A DNA stretch of 64,000 nucleotides from a virus (Duplodnaviria; Heunggongvirae; Uroviricota; Caudoviricetes), in IMG/VR virus record IMGVR_UViG_3300047202_000060. One strand, 5' to 3'. How positions within the stretch are numbered: the first letter of the stretch is position 1; each line of letters opens with the position of its first letter. Made by a program: the position numbers and the translations under genes. Below the pieces are notes generated by a model that saw only the letters and a list, made by a program, of their open reading frames with translations, was not told the origin of the DNA and did no database searches. Shown piece after piece: positions 60,612 through 63,751 of the stretch.

Positions 60612-60692
60612 AATTCCTCTTTTTTCTTGTTCAGAGGGAAAGTTAAAAGAAGTATTTAAAACTTTTGCCTGAATTTATCAAAAACAGTTTAG

Positions 60693-60768
60693 AGCGAGTG
60701 GAAGGATTTGAACCTTCGATTAGCGGTGTTGCGGACCGCTCCGTTTAACCAGACTTCAGCACACTCGC
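60693..60768 (-). tRNA. tRNA-Cys(GCA), C33 variant
   Basis: Acceptor GCGAGTG/CACTCGC, U73; anticodon arm GCGGT-CCGCAAC-ACCGC. Confidence 0.9.
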
Positions 60769-60778
60769 ACAAAGTTAA

Positions 60779-60867
60779 TGGCGGTAGGTGAGAGATTCGA
60801 ACTCTCGGTTCCACATGGGAACGCTGGTTTAGCAAACCAGTACCTTAAACCACTCAGTCAACCTACC
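60779..60867 (-). tRNA. tRNA-Ser(GCT)
   Basis: CTGGT-TTGCTAA-ACCAG, long variable arm, G73, encoded CCA. Confidence 0.95.
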
Positions 60868-60873
60868 ATAAAG

Positions 60874-60962
60874 TGGCGACAGGGAGAGGATTTGAACCTC
60901 TATCTCACATAAGGAGACACCGTTTTCAGGACGGGTGCAATACCTGATTCTGCCACCCTGCC
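60874..60962 (-). tRNA. tRNA-Ser(TGA), C33 variant
   Basis: Loop CCTGAAA, long variable arm, G73, encoded CCA. Confidence 0.85.
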
Positions 60963-61105
60963 ACAAACGGACAAAAAATTTAGGCTGACGATTTGGAATA
61001 ACATCTGGACTGACTGATACCCAAGTCATGATAACTAGGAAGAGTTTTGAATATCATATCAATCACTTGTTCTAAGTATAGTATCAAACACCTATATAAA
61101 CCTTT

Positions 61106-61179
61106 TGGTTGCGGGAGACAGAGTTAAACTGTCGCTATTGGATTATGAGTCCAATTGACTGTCGTTATCTTATCCCGCA
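61106..61179 (-). tRNA. tRNA-Met/Ile2(CAT) with atypical D-arm and T-loop
   Basis: TTGGA-CTCATAA-TCCAA; acceptor TGCGGGA/TCCCGCA; encoded CCA; weak D-arm. Confidence 0.7.
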
Positions 61180-61551
61180 TCACTCGGACCAAATTATTTT
61201 CCAATTACTTTTTGCTTTACATAAGTCTTTTGCTTTATGAAGACTATTACAGACCATACATCGAACCTCAAGATCGTTAGTTTCTCTTCTTCCAGCCAGA
61301 ATATCCAGATAGAATTGTTTTTGGCATCGATTCTTTCTATTCATCTCTTGATTCCCGCCGCCGTTGATGTGGTTGATTTCTAATATTGAATATTCTATAC
61401 ATCCACAATTGACACATTTCCCGCCAAGCAAATCAATGACTTTCTTTCTGATTTTATCATAATATCTTTTATGGGAAACCCTATTTCTCTTAGCCCAATC
61501 TCTTTGAAATTTTCTTTGTTTATTCGCATCTTTGTAAGGCATATTTATCAT
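61180..61551 (-). CDS. HNH endonuclease (family A, copy 3) inserted in the tRNA array
   Basis: LLGGKCVNCG...LEINHINGGG...EVRCMVCNSLHK; its stop abuts tRNA-Met. Confidence 0.75.
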   Translation of the reverse strand: MINMPYKDANKQRKFQRDWAKRNRVSHKRYYDKIRKKVIDLLGGKCVNCGCIEYSILEINHINGGGNQEMNRKNRCQKQFYLDILAGRRETNDLEVRCMVCNSLHKAKDLCKAKSNWKIIWSE

Positions 61552-61563
61552 ATAACTATAATG

Positions 61564-61595
61564 GGTTCGACATATTTAAGTCTTTCTGTCGAACC
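61564..61595. repeat. 9-bp inverted repeat enclosing the TATA box of the HNH gene
   Basis: GGTTCGACA-(14 nt, tatttaagtctttc)-TGTCGAACC. Confidence 0.7.
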
Positions 61596-61603
61596 TTAGT
61601 TAA

Positions 61604-61757
61604 TACGGGCGGGGAGACTTGCACTCCCACAGCAACTAAGCAAGGGGTTTGCTCTTTCTGGGAATTGAATCTTAGCCATCCAGACATGGATTTGAGCCAT
61701 CCAGATTTAAGCCATCCAGACTTACGTTCTCTGGGTTTTCTGATTCCCTACGCCCGC
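61604..61757 (-). tRNA. tRNA-Leu gene with BHB introns at 29/30 and 36/37 and three alternative anticodon micro-exons (TAA 61707-61713, CAA 61692-61698, AAG 61671-61677)
   Basis: Acceptor GCGGGCG/CGCCCGT, A73, D-arm, Leu-type variable arm, T-arm; joining the exons gives the stem GAGGG/CCCTT around a CT-NNN-AC loop. Confidence 0.8.
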
Positions 61758-61877
61758 ATACCCTAACCACGACCCGTGTTGCTCGACACACTCATCGCGT
61801 GAAGAATCGTGGTATAACCTTATTATATGACAATACTACTATATAAACCTTTCTATAGAAGTAACATGCTAAAATAT

Positions 61878-61951
61878 TGGCGGATATGGTGGGAATTGAA
61901 CCCGCGCTATCACCGTGACAGGATGACGTGCTACCACTACACTACATATCC
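61878..61951 (-). tRNA. tRNA-Asp(GTC)
   Basis: TCATC-CTGTCAC-GGTGA, G73, CCA. Confidence 0.9.
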
Positions 61952-61956
61952 ATTAC

Positions 61957-62031
61957 TGGTCCTACTGGACTGAGTTGCACAGTCATCATTCGGTTTACAG
62001 CCGAAGGTCCTATCTGTTAGACGACAGCAGG
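61957..62031 (-). tRNA. tRNA-Tyr(GTA), archaeal type
   Basis: C1-G72, A73, short variable loop, TTCGG-CTGTAAA-CCGAA; G55. Confidence 0.9.
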
Positions 62032-62039
62032 GCAATTGA

Positions 62040-62114
62040 TGGTGGGGCATCACCGAGTCGCACGGTGTCCATGCGGGTCCAAACCGCAGATGCACCCTGT
62101 CACACCTATGCCCC
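62040..62114 (-). tRNA. tRNA-Pro(TGG)
   Basis: TGCGG-TTTGGAC-CCGCA; A37; G55; CCA. Confidence 0.9.
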
Positions 62115-62118
62115 ATAG

Positions 62119-62195
62119 TGGTGGTCCCGCCTAGAGTTGAACTAGGTCTCAGACTTTGTAAGAGTCTGGTGCTAATTCCGTTACACTACGAGACC
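62119..62195 (-). tRNA. tRNA-Val(TAC)
   Basis: AGACT-CTTACAA-AGTCT; CCA. Confidence 0.9.
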
Positions 62196-62197
62196 GA

Positions 62198-62272
62198 TGG
62201 TGGGGTAGTAGAGGATTCGAACCTCTGTTTCTGGTTTTGGAGACCAGAGCCTTCCTATTGACTGAACACCCC
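62198..62272 (-). tRNA. tRNA-Trp(CCA)
   Basis: CTGGT-CTCCAAA-ACCAG; one-nt acceptor bulge; CCA. Confidence 0.85.
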
Positions 62273-62273
62273 A

Positions 62274-62349
62274 TGGCGGAGATGTAAGGAGTCGAACCCT
62301 AACCTTTCAGCTTCGAAGGCTGATATGCTATCCATTACACCACATCTCC
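62274..62349 (-). tRNA. tRNA-Arg(TCG)
   Basis: TCAGC-CTTCGAA-GCTGA; CCA. Confidence 0.95.
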
Positions 62350-62352
62350 AAA

Positions 62353-62425
62353 CGCCGCCCGTAGGAATCGAACCTACACCTTCCGCCTTAACAGGGCGGT
62401 ACACTCACCATTATGCTAGAGCGGC
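62353..62425 (-). tRNA. tRNA-Asn(GTT)
   Basis: CCGCC-CTGTTAA-GGCGG; G73. Confidence 0.95.
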
Positions 62426-62428
62426 AAG

Positions 62429-62501
62429 TGCCGACTAGCGGAGTCGAACCGCTGTCATACCCGTGTTTCAGACGGGCGAACTCCCGTTGTTCTAAGTCGG
62501 C
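62429..62501 (-). tRNA. tRNA-Phe(GAA)
   Basis: CCCGT-CTGAAAC-ACGGG; A73. Confidence 0.9.
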
Positions 62502-62505
62502 ATAG

Positions 62506-62576
62506 TTGGTAAGGCGGGAGTTGGACCCGCTCTAATGGCTTCACAGACCATTGTGCTACTGTTACACTACATACCG
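62506..62576 (-). tRNA. tRNA-His(GTG) with imperfect acceptor stem
   Basis: ATGGT-CTGTGAA-GCCAT; two acceptor mismatches; C55. Confidence 0.7.
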
Positions 62577-62578
62577 AA

Positions 62579-62652
62579 AGGACCATACGGGATTTGAACC
62601 CGTGTTTGCGGATTAAAGGTCCGCCGCACTAACCTGACTATGCTAATGGTCC
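62579..62652 (-). tRNA. tRNA-Lys(TTT), C33 variant
   Basis: GCGGA-CCTTTAA-TCCGC. Confidence 0.9.
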
Positions 62653-62657
62653 ACGAG

Positions 62658-62730
62658 TGCACCTATTGGGATTTGAACCCAAATTCTCGGATTAAGGGTC
62701 CGATGTACTGCCTGATTATACGATAGGTGC
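62658..62730 (-). tRNA. tRNA-Lys(CTT), C33 variant
   Basis: TCGGA-CCCTTAA-TCCGA. Confidence 0.9.
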
Positions 62731-62737
62731 TCATAGA

Positions 62738-62810
62738 TGGGCGATGGTGGAGTTGAACCACCTTCAACAGACTTATAAGGCTCTGTATGCTACCGTTACA
62801 TTATTCGCCC
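62738..62810 (-). tRNA. tRNA-Ile(TAT) with a bulged G in the anticodon stem
   Basis: CAGA(G)C-CTTATAA-GTCTG; acceptor GGGCGAA/ATCGCCC, A73. Confidence 0.75.
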
Positions 62811-62815
62811 GCTAT

Positions 62816-62890
62816 TGGTGCGGATGTCGGGAATTGCACCCGAACCACAACCTTGGAAAGGTCATTATGCAACTATTACACTTCATCCGC
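62816..62890 (-). tRNA. tRNA-Gly(TCC)
   Basis: TGACC-TTTCCAA-GGTTG; G55; CCA. Confidence 0.9.
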
Positions 62891-62895
62891 ATTAC

Positions 62896-62970
62896 TGGTG
62901 CAAGAGGCGGGAATCGGACCCACGCCTTAGACTCGGCAAGTCCACATGCTACCACTAACACCACTCTTGC
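62896..62970 (-). tRNA. tRNA-Gly(GCC)
   Basis: TGGAC-TTGCCGA-GTCTA; C55; CCA. Confidence 0.9.
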
Positions 62971-62971
62971 A

Positions 62972-63048
62972 TGGTGGAGTAAGAGGGATTTGAACCCTCA
63001 CCTTCTGTTTGCAAAACAGATGTGCTACCAGATTGACACTAAAACCCC
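62972..63048 (-). tRNA. tRNA-Ala(TGC)
   Basis: TCTGT-TTTGCAA-ACAGA; G3:U70 identity pair; CCA. Confidence 0.9.
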
Positions 63049-63052
63049 ATAG

Positions 63053-63183
63053 TGGTCCCGTGGGGAGTTGAACCCCAACTCACAGGTTTCTCCGTCTGGT
63101 AAACTATTTTTATTAGTTTACCACCTGAGAGCCTTTGAGCGACTTGAAAGCCTGTGCTCCTTGTCCGTTTAGATTACGGGACC
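63053..63183 (-). tRNA. tRNA-Glu with BHB intron(s): TTC via one 57-nt intron (63088-63144), or CTC via 19-nt (63135-63153) plus 38-nt (63088-63125) introns
   Basis: Stem ACAGG/CCTGT; a second AGGCTCTCA element lies inside the intron; BHB helices CTTT or CTCT with GGAG, and GAGC/GCTC. Confidence 0.85.
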
Positions 63184-63186
63184 GAA

Positions 63187-63258
63187 AGCCGCTACCAGAA
63201 GTTGCATCTGGACCCAGAGTTTACAAAACTCTCATGCTACTGTTAACACTATAGCGGC
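63187..63258 (-). tRNA. tRNA-Thr(TGT)
   Basis: AGAGT-TTTGTAA-ACTCT; U73; G55. Confidence 0.9.
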
Positions 63259-63259
63259 A

Positions 63260-63335
63260 TGGCACAAGTGGAAGGATTCGAACCCTCATCTCTCACGTTA
63301 GAACCGTGATGCTCTATCCATTAAGCTACACCTGT
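63260..63335 (-). tRNA. tRNA-Arg(TCT)
   Basis: TCACG-GTTCTAA-CGTGA (G32); CCA. Confidence 0.9.
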
Positions 63336-63370
63336 ATTTGTGAAGTCAATTGAATGCAGTTGAAATCAAT

Positions 63371-63485
63371 TGGTAGTGGGTGGCAGATTCGAACTGCCCC
63401 TACAAGCTATCTCCATTGGACAATATCAGAGGCTTAGACCCCAATTTCAAAGGCTTGTCTCCTTATCCAAATAGATTAACCCACT
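63371..63485 (-). tRNA. tRNA-Gln with BHB intron(s): TTG via one 38-nt intron (63409-63446), or CTG via 21-nt (63434-63454) plus 17-nt (63409-63425) introns
   Basis: A1-U72, stem CAAGC/GCTTG; a second GCCTCTGA element lies inside the intron; strict BHB at 29/30 (AGAC/GTCT); CCA. Confidence 0.88.
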
Positions 63486-63528
63486 ATATCCATAATGCCA
63501 ATGCAATCGACCACGGCAAGACAAAGAA

Positions 63529-63660
63529 ATGATGGCAAGAAAATCGTGATAATCTTGACGGGTCTTACTGTTGTCTTCGCTTACCGTGATCTGCTGGTTT
63601 GGCGACTGTCGTATTAAAATACCAAAACTCGAAACGTTCTATACGACTTTTTGCCATCAT
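63529..63660 (-). ncRNA. Candidate structured RNA or leader upstream of the tRNA array
   Basis: About 18-bp terminal stem ATGATGGCAA-AAAGTCGT / ACGATTTT-C-TTGCCATCAT; TATA box at about 63705-63716. Confidence 0.4.
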
Positions 63661-63751
63661 AGCTAAGACCACGTTTATAGAGAGTGTAATATAATACAAA
63701 ACAAGTATATAAATGTTTCGGTAGAAAGACCATACTCAATAGTGTCATAAA

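Follow-up and report, generated by a model that had tools for sequence, protein, structure and literature searches.

A viral tRNA-Gln gene with two synonymous anticodon modules and competing splice motifs, a candidate for alternative tRNA splicing in cis

The window, a stretch of 64,000 nucleotides that was analysed as a whole, comes from an uncultured archaeal virus with a G+C content of about 35%. Its protein genes encode MCM, LonB, a family-B DNA polymerase, a tail-collar protein, RadA/Rad51 and PTH2, with a weak match to a terminase; this gene content is that of a large tailed archaeal virus. The closest named cellular relatives of the polymerase are found in Bathyarchaeia (about 46-47% identity), and the host of the virus is probably a member of this group. 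The analysis covered these 64 kb and a further 5 kb or so from a second record, L004, out of a genome of about 140 kb.

A dense array of tRNA genes occupies the minus strand from position 60692 to 63485. Standard scans (ARAGORN without introns, Rfam) report no Gln, Glu or Leu gene in this array. When introns are allowed, ARAGORN identifies two more genes: at c[63371,63485] a tRNA-Gln(ttg), interrupted after position 37 by an intron of 38 nt, and at c[63052,63183] a tRNA-Glu(ttc), whose intron has 57 nt. The first base pair of the viral tRNA-Gln is A1-U72 and the same pair is present in the tRNA-Gln genes retrieved from Bathyarchaeia. The features of the tRNA-Gln gene and of its two sister genes are listed in Table 1.

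Table 1. Coordinates of the tRNA-Gln gene, its parts and related genes (positions in the window unless another contig is named)
Feature	Position	Strand	Basis
tRNA-Gln gene, whole (115-nt precursor with encoded CCA)	63371..63485	-	ARAGORN with introns
Shared 5' exon, tRNA positions 1-29 (index 1-31)	63455..63485	-	scanner (31,52)
Anticodon module 1, GCCTTTGA, positions 30-37, TTG at 63448-63450	63447..63454	-	ARAGORN, scanner
Putative route-B intron 1, 21 nt, at 29/30	63434..63454	-	scanner (31,52), covariation, shuffles
Anticodon module 2, GCCTCTGA, CTG at 63427-63429	63426..63433	-	sequence, scanner, alignment
Putative route-B intron 2, 17 nt, at 37/38, TATTGTCCAATGGAGAT	63409..63425	-	scanner (60,77)
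Route-A intron, 38 nt, at 37/38	63409..63446	-	ARAGORN, scanner (39,77)
Shared 3' exon, position 38 to 3' end including CCA	63371..63408	-	ARAGORN
tRNA-Glu gene, modules AGGCTTTCA and AGGCTCTCA (TTC, CTC)	63052..63183	-	ARAGORN, scanner, relatives
tRNA-Leu gene, cassettes TAA, CAA, AAG	61604..61757	-	ARAGORN on products
353-nt element within the tRNA-Gln gene of L013	L013:5211-5563	-	BHB-bounded, intron within intron

Several other features of the array and its surroundings were noted. The leader upstream of tRNA-Gln (63486-63680, minus strand) is strongly structured (MFE -55 kcal/mol, z = -3.3), about 90% conserved in L001 and has no Rfam match; a TATA-like TTTATATA lies close by, near 63705-63712. 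A tRNA with the anticodon TAT (62738-62810, minus strand) is recognised by Rfam only (43 bits) and has an irregular anticodon stem-loop in the window copy; relatives have a tRNA-Ile(tat) in the corresponding position. A gene resembling tRNA-Pro(TGG), with the odd T-loop GTGCGAC (62036-62113, minus strand) is missed by both ARAGORN and Rfam, and L001, L006 and L013 have a normal tRNA-Pro(tgg) there. The gap between tRNA-Met and tRNA-Asp contains a small Cys-rich ORF (61183-61551) and the Leu gene in the window; between the same two tRNAs, L001 has small ORFs that match domain 1 and domain 2 of eRF1 (L001:14555-15124, minus strand).

Bulge-helix-bulge (BHB) motifs, the splice motifs of archaea, were searched with a purpose-written scanner: a match needs a central helix of 4 bp between two bulges of 3 nt, each bulge being cut after its second base, and an outer and an inner helix. 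The precursor is numbered from base 63485 (index 1), each match is named by the last base of the 5' exon and the last base of the intron, and a vertical bar marks a cut. The sole matches whose outer and inner helices each have 3 bp or more in the 115-nt precursor are (39,77), (31,52) and (60,77). The first predicts a 38-nt intron at 37/38 and has 6/4/6 bp (outer ACAAGC/GCTTGT, central CTTT/GGAG, inner ATTGGG/TCCAAT). The second predicts a 21-nt intron at 29/30 and has 3/4/3 bp (outer AGG/CCT, central AGAC/GTCT, inner CCT/GGG, bulges AA|G and AA|G). The third predicts a 17-nt intron at 37/38 and has 5/4/3 bp (outer TAAGC/GCTTG, central CTCT/GGAG, inner ATT/AAT).

These three motifs correspond to two ways of reading the gene that an earlier note, made from the sequence, had put forward. 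In route A, a single 38-nt intron at 37/38 with the central helix CTTT/GGAG is removed to give Gln(UUG); this is what ARAGORN calls, and the scanner agrees. In route B, the same stretch is removed as two introns of 21 and 17 nt, which do add up to 38. The 17-nt intron was recovered exactly as proposed, with CTCT/GGAG and the inner helix ATT/AAT. For the 29/30 motif, the outer helix, the central helix and the bulges stood, but the inner helix is not CCTT/GGGG: it has 3 bp, one of them U-G, because 63439-63442 offers only four G, of which GTCT takes one.

The gene is arranged as two short anticodon modules between shared exons. The 5' exon ends in AGG-AGAC-AA, which is at the same time the outer strand, the central strand and the bulge of the 29/30 BHB. 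Module 1 is kept as exon by route A, whereas in route B it would leave with the 21-nt intron. That intron consists of module 1 and the spacer AATTGGGGTCTAA, which provides the GGG of the inner helix, the GTCT of the central helix and the AA|G bulge. Module 2 is a copy of exon bases 30-37 with C instead of T at base 34. Route A discards it with the intron; in route B it would be retained as a micro-exon of 8 nt. Each module is followed by N-ATTG, which is complementary to one CAAT upstream of GGAG, so that two 5' modules face one common 3' half-site. This half-site, CCAAT-GGAG-AT|, is held by the 17-nt intron and is able to pair with either module.

When the spliced products are given to ARAGORN, route A is recognised as tRNA-Gln(ttg) and route B as tRNA-Gln(ctg); the two are identical except for base 34. 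The predicted junctions are CAAGCCTTTGA|AGCTTG for route A and CAA|GCCTCTGA|AGCTTG for route B. In route B the order of the two cuts is free: whichever intron is removed first, the predicted intermediate has exactly one strict BHB, namely the one that is needed for the second step. When the spacer was shuffled (200,000 trials), a BHB in the correct register arose in 0.06-0.24% of the shuffles of the window copy and in 0.11% of those of L001. Chance is excluded as the source of the in-register 29/30 motif. Folding with ViennaRNA under partial constraints gives about equal energies for the three BHB folds (-10 to -13 kcal/mol), with the MFE at -33. The MFE structure contains no BHB, not even the one of route A, and energy prediction can therefore not rank the routes.

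Homologues of the gene were obtained from contigs around metagenomic relatives of the polymerase and from an exact-word metagenome scan with the Gln 5' half. L015 and L013 belong to the clade of the window, while L001 (identical to L023), L012 and L020 form a second clade; the Gln copy of L006 is cut off at the contig end. Four of these, all from other metagenome samples, are further distinct complete homologues (L015, L001=L023, L012, L020). In all, including L013 and the partial L006, there are two modules that differ only by T or C at base 34. Searches elsewhere gave no relatives: a phage database returned only generic tRNA matches, scans of IMG/VR for peptides of PolB or for patterns of Gln, Glu and Leu had no matches, and neither had a GTDB genome scan with the Gln 5' half. 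Another four relatives of PolB contributed no DNA or no tRNA array. An origin of the layout in faulty or chimeric assembly, which could be suspected as the window is metagenomic, is refuted by independent assemblies: L004 has the identical sequence and the same design is found on contigs from at least five other samples, leaving this explanation with practically no weight.

The three BHBs are kept in the homologues. The 29/30 motif varies from 2/4/2 to 2/4/5 among relatives and the first intron from 20 to 26 nt, with the geometry of 3-nt bulge, 4-bp helix and 3-nt bulge exact and in register throughout. ARAGORN accepts the products of five distinct homologues as both Gln(ttg) and Gln(ctg). Pairing was quantified on an alignment (A1) of five distinct complete sequences from two clades. 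The motif of route A is paired in 100% of cells with three two-sided pair changes, the 17-nt 37/38 motif in 96.7% with two such changes, and the 29/30 motif in 94.5% with two pairs changed on both sides and a central helix paired to 100%. Sliding the partners by 1-3 columns reduces these values to 28-46%, 23-52% and 29-67%, respectively. In a column-shuffle control, the score of the 29/30 motif was reached in 13 of 500 shuffles. With only two clades in A1, no more than one or two independent contrasts underlie the compensatory changes.

The changes between the clades are instructive in detail. The central helix of the 29/30 motif goes from AGAC/GTCT to AATC/GRTT, with G27-C replaced by A-U and A28-U by U-A or U-G. 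Exon position 26 changes from A to U, and both its partner in the mature tRNA, position 44, and its partner in the 29/30 spacer follow; this pattern is the one expected for a base that would have two alternative partners. At base 33 the second clade has changed from T to C in both modules and the shared intron partner from A to G. U at position 33 of tRNAs is near-universal, and C33 is unusual for a working tRNA; it is present in both modules of L001:16727-16846, L012:2550-2668 and L020:1038-1157 (all minus strand). Directly observed are the motifs with their conservation and compensatory changes, as well as valid sequences of both products.

The same alignment bears on the idea that the second module is a neutral, decaying fossil, left behind by a deletion in a tandem of Gln genes or by slippage duplication. 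Relatives do have tandem U34/C34 pairs for Glu and Lys with the U34 gene first, and a deletion between two such genes could give the layout seen here. Nevertheless, the layout persists in two clades whose introns are different at about 40% of the bases that can be aligned, and module 2 has stayed at exon-level identity: between the clades it differs at one of eight bases, compared with about 13 of 30 other alignable intron bases plus a 5-nt indel. Module 2 also follows module 1 at base 33 and its flanking helices are compensated. We regard a mere fossil as improbable; an origin of this kind would be compatible with a present function.

The Gln gene of L013 is interrupted by a 353-nt element with a Cys/His-rich ORF of 101 codons, inserted between GTCTAA and GCCTCTGA. 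The insertion site is exactly the predicted 3' AA|G cut of the 29/30 motif. The element has a BHB of its own (central GTCT/GGAC, inner helix of 8 bp) that re-uses GTCT-AA as half-site, and its removal in silico restores the sequence of L015. Two tRNA genes of L006, tRNA-Arg(tct) at L006:17245-17735 and tRNA-Thr(tgt) at L006:16665-17250 (both minus strand), have 37/38 BHB introns of 407 and 504 nt, each with a small Cys/His-rich ORF that resembles the one of L013. These ORF-bearing introns of L006 may be mobile, protein-coding tRNA introns; Pfam gave no match to the intron-borne ORFs.

The flanks of the 29/30 motif are short: the outer helix has 2-3 bp and the inner helix, in the clade of the window, 2-3 bp as well. 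Its formation requires opening of the D stem and of the upper anticodon stem, and it shares bases 33-35 and 44-46 with fold A, as the earlier note had predicted for two folds that are rivals for the same bases. This competition makes the 29/30 pairing a liability if it has no use of its own.

The last point is central to an alternative in which only route A works and the gene makes Gln(UUG) alone, with module 2 and the spacer helix kept for another reason such as slowing or gating of precursor folding, stability of the excised intron or short-tract gene conversion from module 1. The BHB of route A is by far the strongest (6/4/6), standard software finds this route alone, and the covariation comes from just two clades. 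Against this, a 29/30 pairing without a use would harm route A, its geometry is exact and in register with the repeat at a chance level of about 0.1% of trials, any gene conversion must have left base 34 untouched in each lineage, and the Glu twin described below replaces two real genes of relatives. All in all, we consider the exclusive use of route A unlikely, though it deserves to be taken seriously. Codon usage of the virus is 22% CAG for Gln, 20% GAG for Glu and 27% AAG for Lys; for AAG the virus has a separate C34 tRNA, and the CAG share of Gln codons is similar. CAG might, on the other hand, be read by a U34 tRNA through wobble, and a separate Gln(CUG) gene may lie outside the covered sequence.

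Two further roles for the intron itself were considered. A box C/D guide RNA, as in the intron of tRNA-Trp, was rejected because the intron element repeats the anticodon region in the same sense and is not complementary to it. Alternatively, the excised intron, probably circular, could mimic an anticodon arm and serve as a decoy or in regulation; anticodon nucleases and tRNA-modifying enzymes are examples of conceivable targets. Module 2 with its TAAGC/GCTTG-like flanks does look like an anticodon arm, and the virus is rich in translation-related genes such as PTH2. Yet in the excised 38-nt intron module 2 lacks its 3' stem partner, which is exon, and a decoy would explain neither the synonymous C34 copy in both Gln and Glu nor the preservation of an in-register 29/30 BHB; this role appears very improbable to us.

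The tRNA-Glu gene has the same design. Its two modules are offset by 19 nt and both pair with one 3' half-site, GGAG-AA|. Two-module Glu genes are also present in L012:2245-2355 and L013:4858-4970 (both minus strand): across the three copies, the first 19 nt of the intron and module 2 are nearly invariant, with one G-U to G-C change, and the remainder of the intron cannot be aligned while its inner helices are still paired. The motif that would remove module 1 is relaxed, with a central helix GAGC/GCTC (4/4), an inner helix of 4 bp and the outer helix missing; its register is right in each of the three copies, a result that shuffles reach in 0.03% of trials. At the place of the two-module gene, L001, L006 and L020 have two separate, intronless genes, Glu(ttc) followed by Glu(ctc), indicating that two-module gene and gene pair replace each other. 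Simple fusion of such a pair lacks direct support as the origin of the dual gene, the exons of which are close to neither partner.

For the tRNA-Leu gene, the earlier note had suggested cuts at 29/30 and 36/37. This model holds up: the central helix CCAG/CTGG is formed 4/4 with each of the three cassettes and ARAGORN accepts the products as taa, caa and aag. Every product requires the 29/30 cut. Hybrid TAG/CAG cassettes, which the BHB-like pairings (68,104) and (83,104) between cassettes would give (numbered on the stretch 61590-61775), may be used instead, but were set aside in favour of this model with its ARAGORN-accepted products. The Leu region is 87-96% identical in L001, L006 and L010. 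CTT is the commonest Leu codon (31%). A different tRNA-Leu(taa) is present at L015:1012-1153 (minus strand); its 57-nt intron contains CTAAGA and CTCAAAG, two copies resembling an anticodon loop.

Pfam domains of the splicing endonuclease EndA and of the RtcB-type ligase are absent from the ORFs of the window, and the virus would therefore depend on host enzymes. In five of five Bathyarchaeia genomes there are two separate genes with an EndA domain, of about 185-230 aa each. A layout with two genes is typical of the heterotetrameric enzyme, which tolerates relaxed, non-canonical motifs, and by analogy the EndA of Bathyarchaeia is likely to be of this type. The host tRNA-Gln genes themselves were searched in 151 Bathyarchaeia genomes with a covariance model (R1) of the viral gene. 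Host tRNA-Gln(UUG) and tRNA-Gln(CUG) are encoded by separate genes, some intronless and others with a single 37/38 intron of 16-55 nt; the best 20 matches from these genomes include no two-module gene.

The earlier reading of a dual-anticodon gene is thus partly supported, in that all its predictions that can be tested on sequence came out as predicted. We lean, if only slightly, towards the explanation that one two-cassette tRNA-Gln gene yields both Gln(UUG) and Gln(CUG). Production of two tRNAs is the simplest reading because the second module is same-sense, synonymous and conserved at exon grade, because it has its own compensated splice motifs in a design that recurs in Glu and Leu, and because relatives can have a pair of genes in its stead. 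Further points in favour of two products are the Leu gene, which gives no tRNA unless it is cut at 29/30, the element of L013 at the predicted cut, the two EndA genes of Bathyarchaeia and the CAG share of Gln codons. The short flanks of the 29/30 motif, C33 in one clade, wobble reading of CAG and the part of the genome beyond the covered sequence count against it.

Production of the CUG tRNA is what we infer from these features, and it could proceed as follows. A single transcript would adopt one of two mutually exclusive folds, and the EndA and RNA ligase of the host would act on both. In fold A, the 3' half-site CCAAT-GGAG-AT|A-GCTTG would pair with module 1 into one canonical BHB, and removal of 38 nt would give tRNA-Gln(UUG). 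In fold B, the spacer (GGG-GTCT) would pair back on the exon AGAC and on module 1, and the resulting 29/30 BHB would release module 1 with the 21-nt intron; the 3' half-site would pair with module 2 and the 17-nt intron at 37/38 would be removed, in either order, giving tRNA-Gln(CUG) with module 2 as 8-nt micro-exon. EndA would have to cut the 29/30 motif in vivo, and both tRNAs would then be expected to accumulate. Folding would set the split between the routes, perhaps in a kinetic manner: by the time transcription reaches the 3' half-site, the 29/30 motif has already been completed.

For the wider proposal, namely a virus lineage with mutually exclusive anticodon cassettes in Gln, Glu and Leu that are resolved by alternative cis-splicing with host enzymes, we see the balance as about even. 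If it is true, one compact gene gives rise to two or three isoacceptors in a ratio that depends on competing, possibly co-transcriptional folds, and the virus widens its decoding set without extra genes. It would also be the first case in which a single transcript is alternatively spliced to different tRNAs and, if both tRNAs are made, the BHB system would choose exons, beyond the mere removal of introns. A practical consequence is that standard tRNA finders under-count anticodons here: CUG, CUC and all Leu anticodons are missed.

Introns in tRNA genes of archaeal viruses are already known (PMC13532342), and the viral Gln gene combines features of several described systems. At 37/38 it resembles a canonical BHB intron, with an hBHBh' motif and a cloverleaf that is restored by excision in five homologues; at 29/30 it resembles a non-canonical one, with in-register pairing of exon and intron and compensatory helix changes between two clades. 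Multi-intron tRNA genes with non-canonical BHB introns are described from Thermoproteales (Sugahara et al. 2008; PMC4090602). As proposed for the viral gene, a 37/38 intron can be joined by a second one at a non-canonical position in a stem, and the BHB between exon and intron is a rival of the cloverleaf; however, the introns in that account are all removed to give one product and none is described with a second synonymous anticodon. The presumed host group shares the A1-U72 body, and the 37/38 intron of its Gln(CUG) has 16-18 nt, the size class of the viral 17-nt intron, but Bathyarchaeia have UUG and CUG on separate genes, unlike the two-module gene of the virus. Mutually exclusive exons of spliceosomal genes follow the same logic of competing pairings; machinery and substrate are unrelated and the likeness is an analogy only.

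The closest parallels are split tRNAs. Nanoarchaeum equitans has split tRNA-Glu(UUC) and tRNA-Glu(CUC) with one common 3' half (Randau et al. 2005; PMC4090602): as described there, this is likewise a U34/C34 pair that obtains a common 3' half through BHB splicing, with the difference that two full 5' halves are spliced in trans, whereas the virus would exchange an 8-nt cassette in cis. Caldivirga maquilingensis has a tri-split tRNA-Gly and a split tRNA-Ala (Fujishima et al. 2009; PMC4090602, PMC4390854). According to these accounts, synonymous isoacceptors are made there, as proposed for the viral Gln gene, from constant 5' and 3' parts and alternative short anticodon pieces, which are joined at BHB motifs by EndA and ligase with breakpoints at 37/38 and, in the Ala pair, at 29/30. 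Constant parts with synonymous pieces are what we find in the virus (TTG/CTG, TTC/CTC, TAA/CAA/AAG). In Caldivirga, however, each piece has its own gene and transcript and joining is in trans, while those of the viral Gln gene are just 13 and 17 nt apart in one 115-nt unit with competing folds and a viral carrier. For Nanoarchaeum and Caldivirga alike, the reviews (PMC4090602, PMC4390854) have the shared and alternative pieces come from separate transcripts in every case. The viral Gln gene would work like a tri-split tRNA but is not one. Full-text searches of the literature found no report of alternative tRNA splicing in cis or of anticodon cassettes and, as the known analogues are trans-spliced split and tri-split tRNAs, the cis form would be new. 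If our reading is true, it links intron-bearing tRNA genes with split and tri-split ones and offers an intermediate for the debate on the origin of fragmented tRNA genes.
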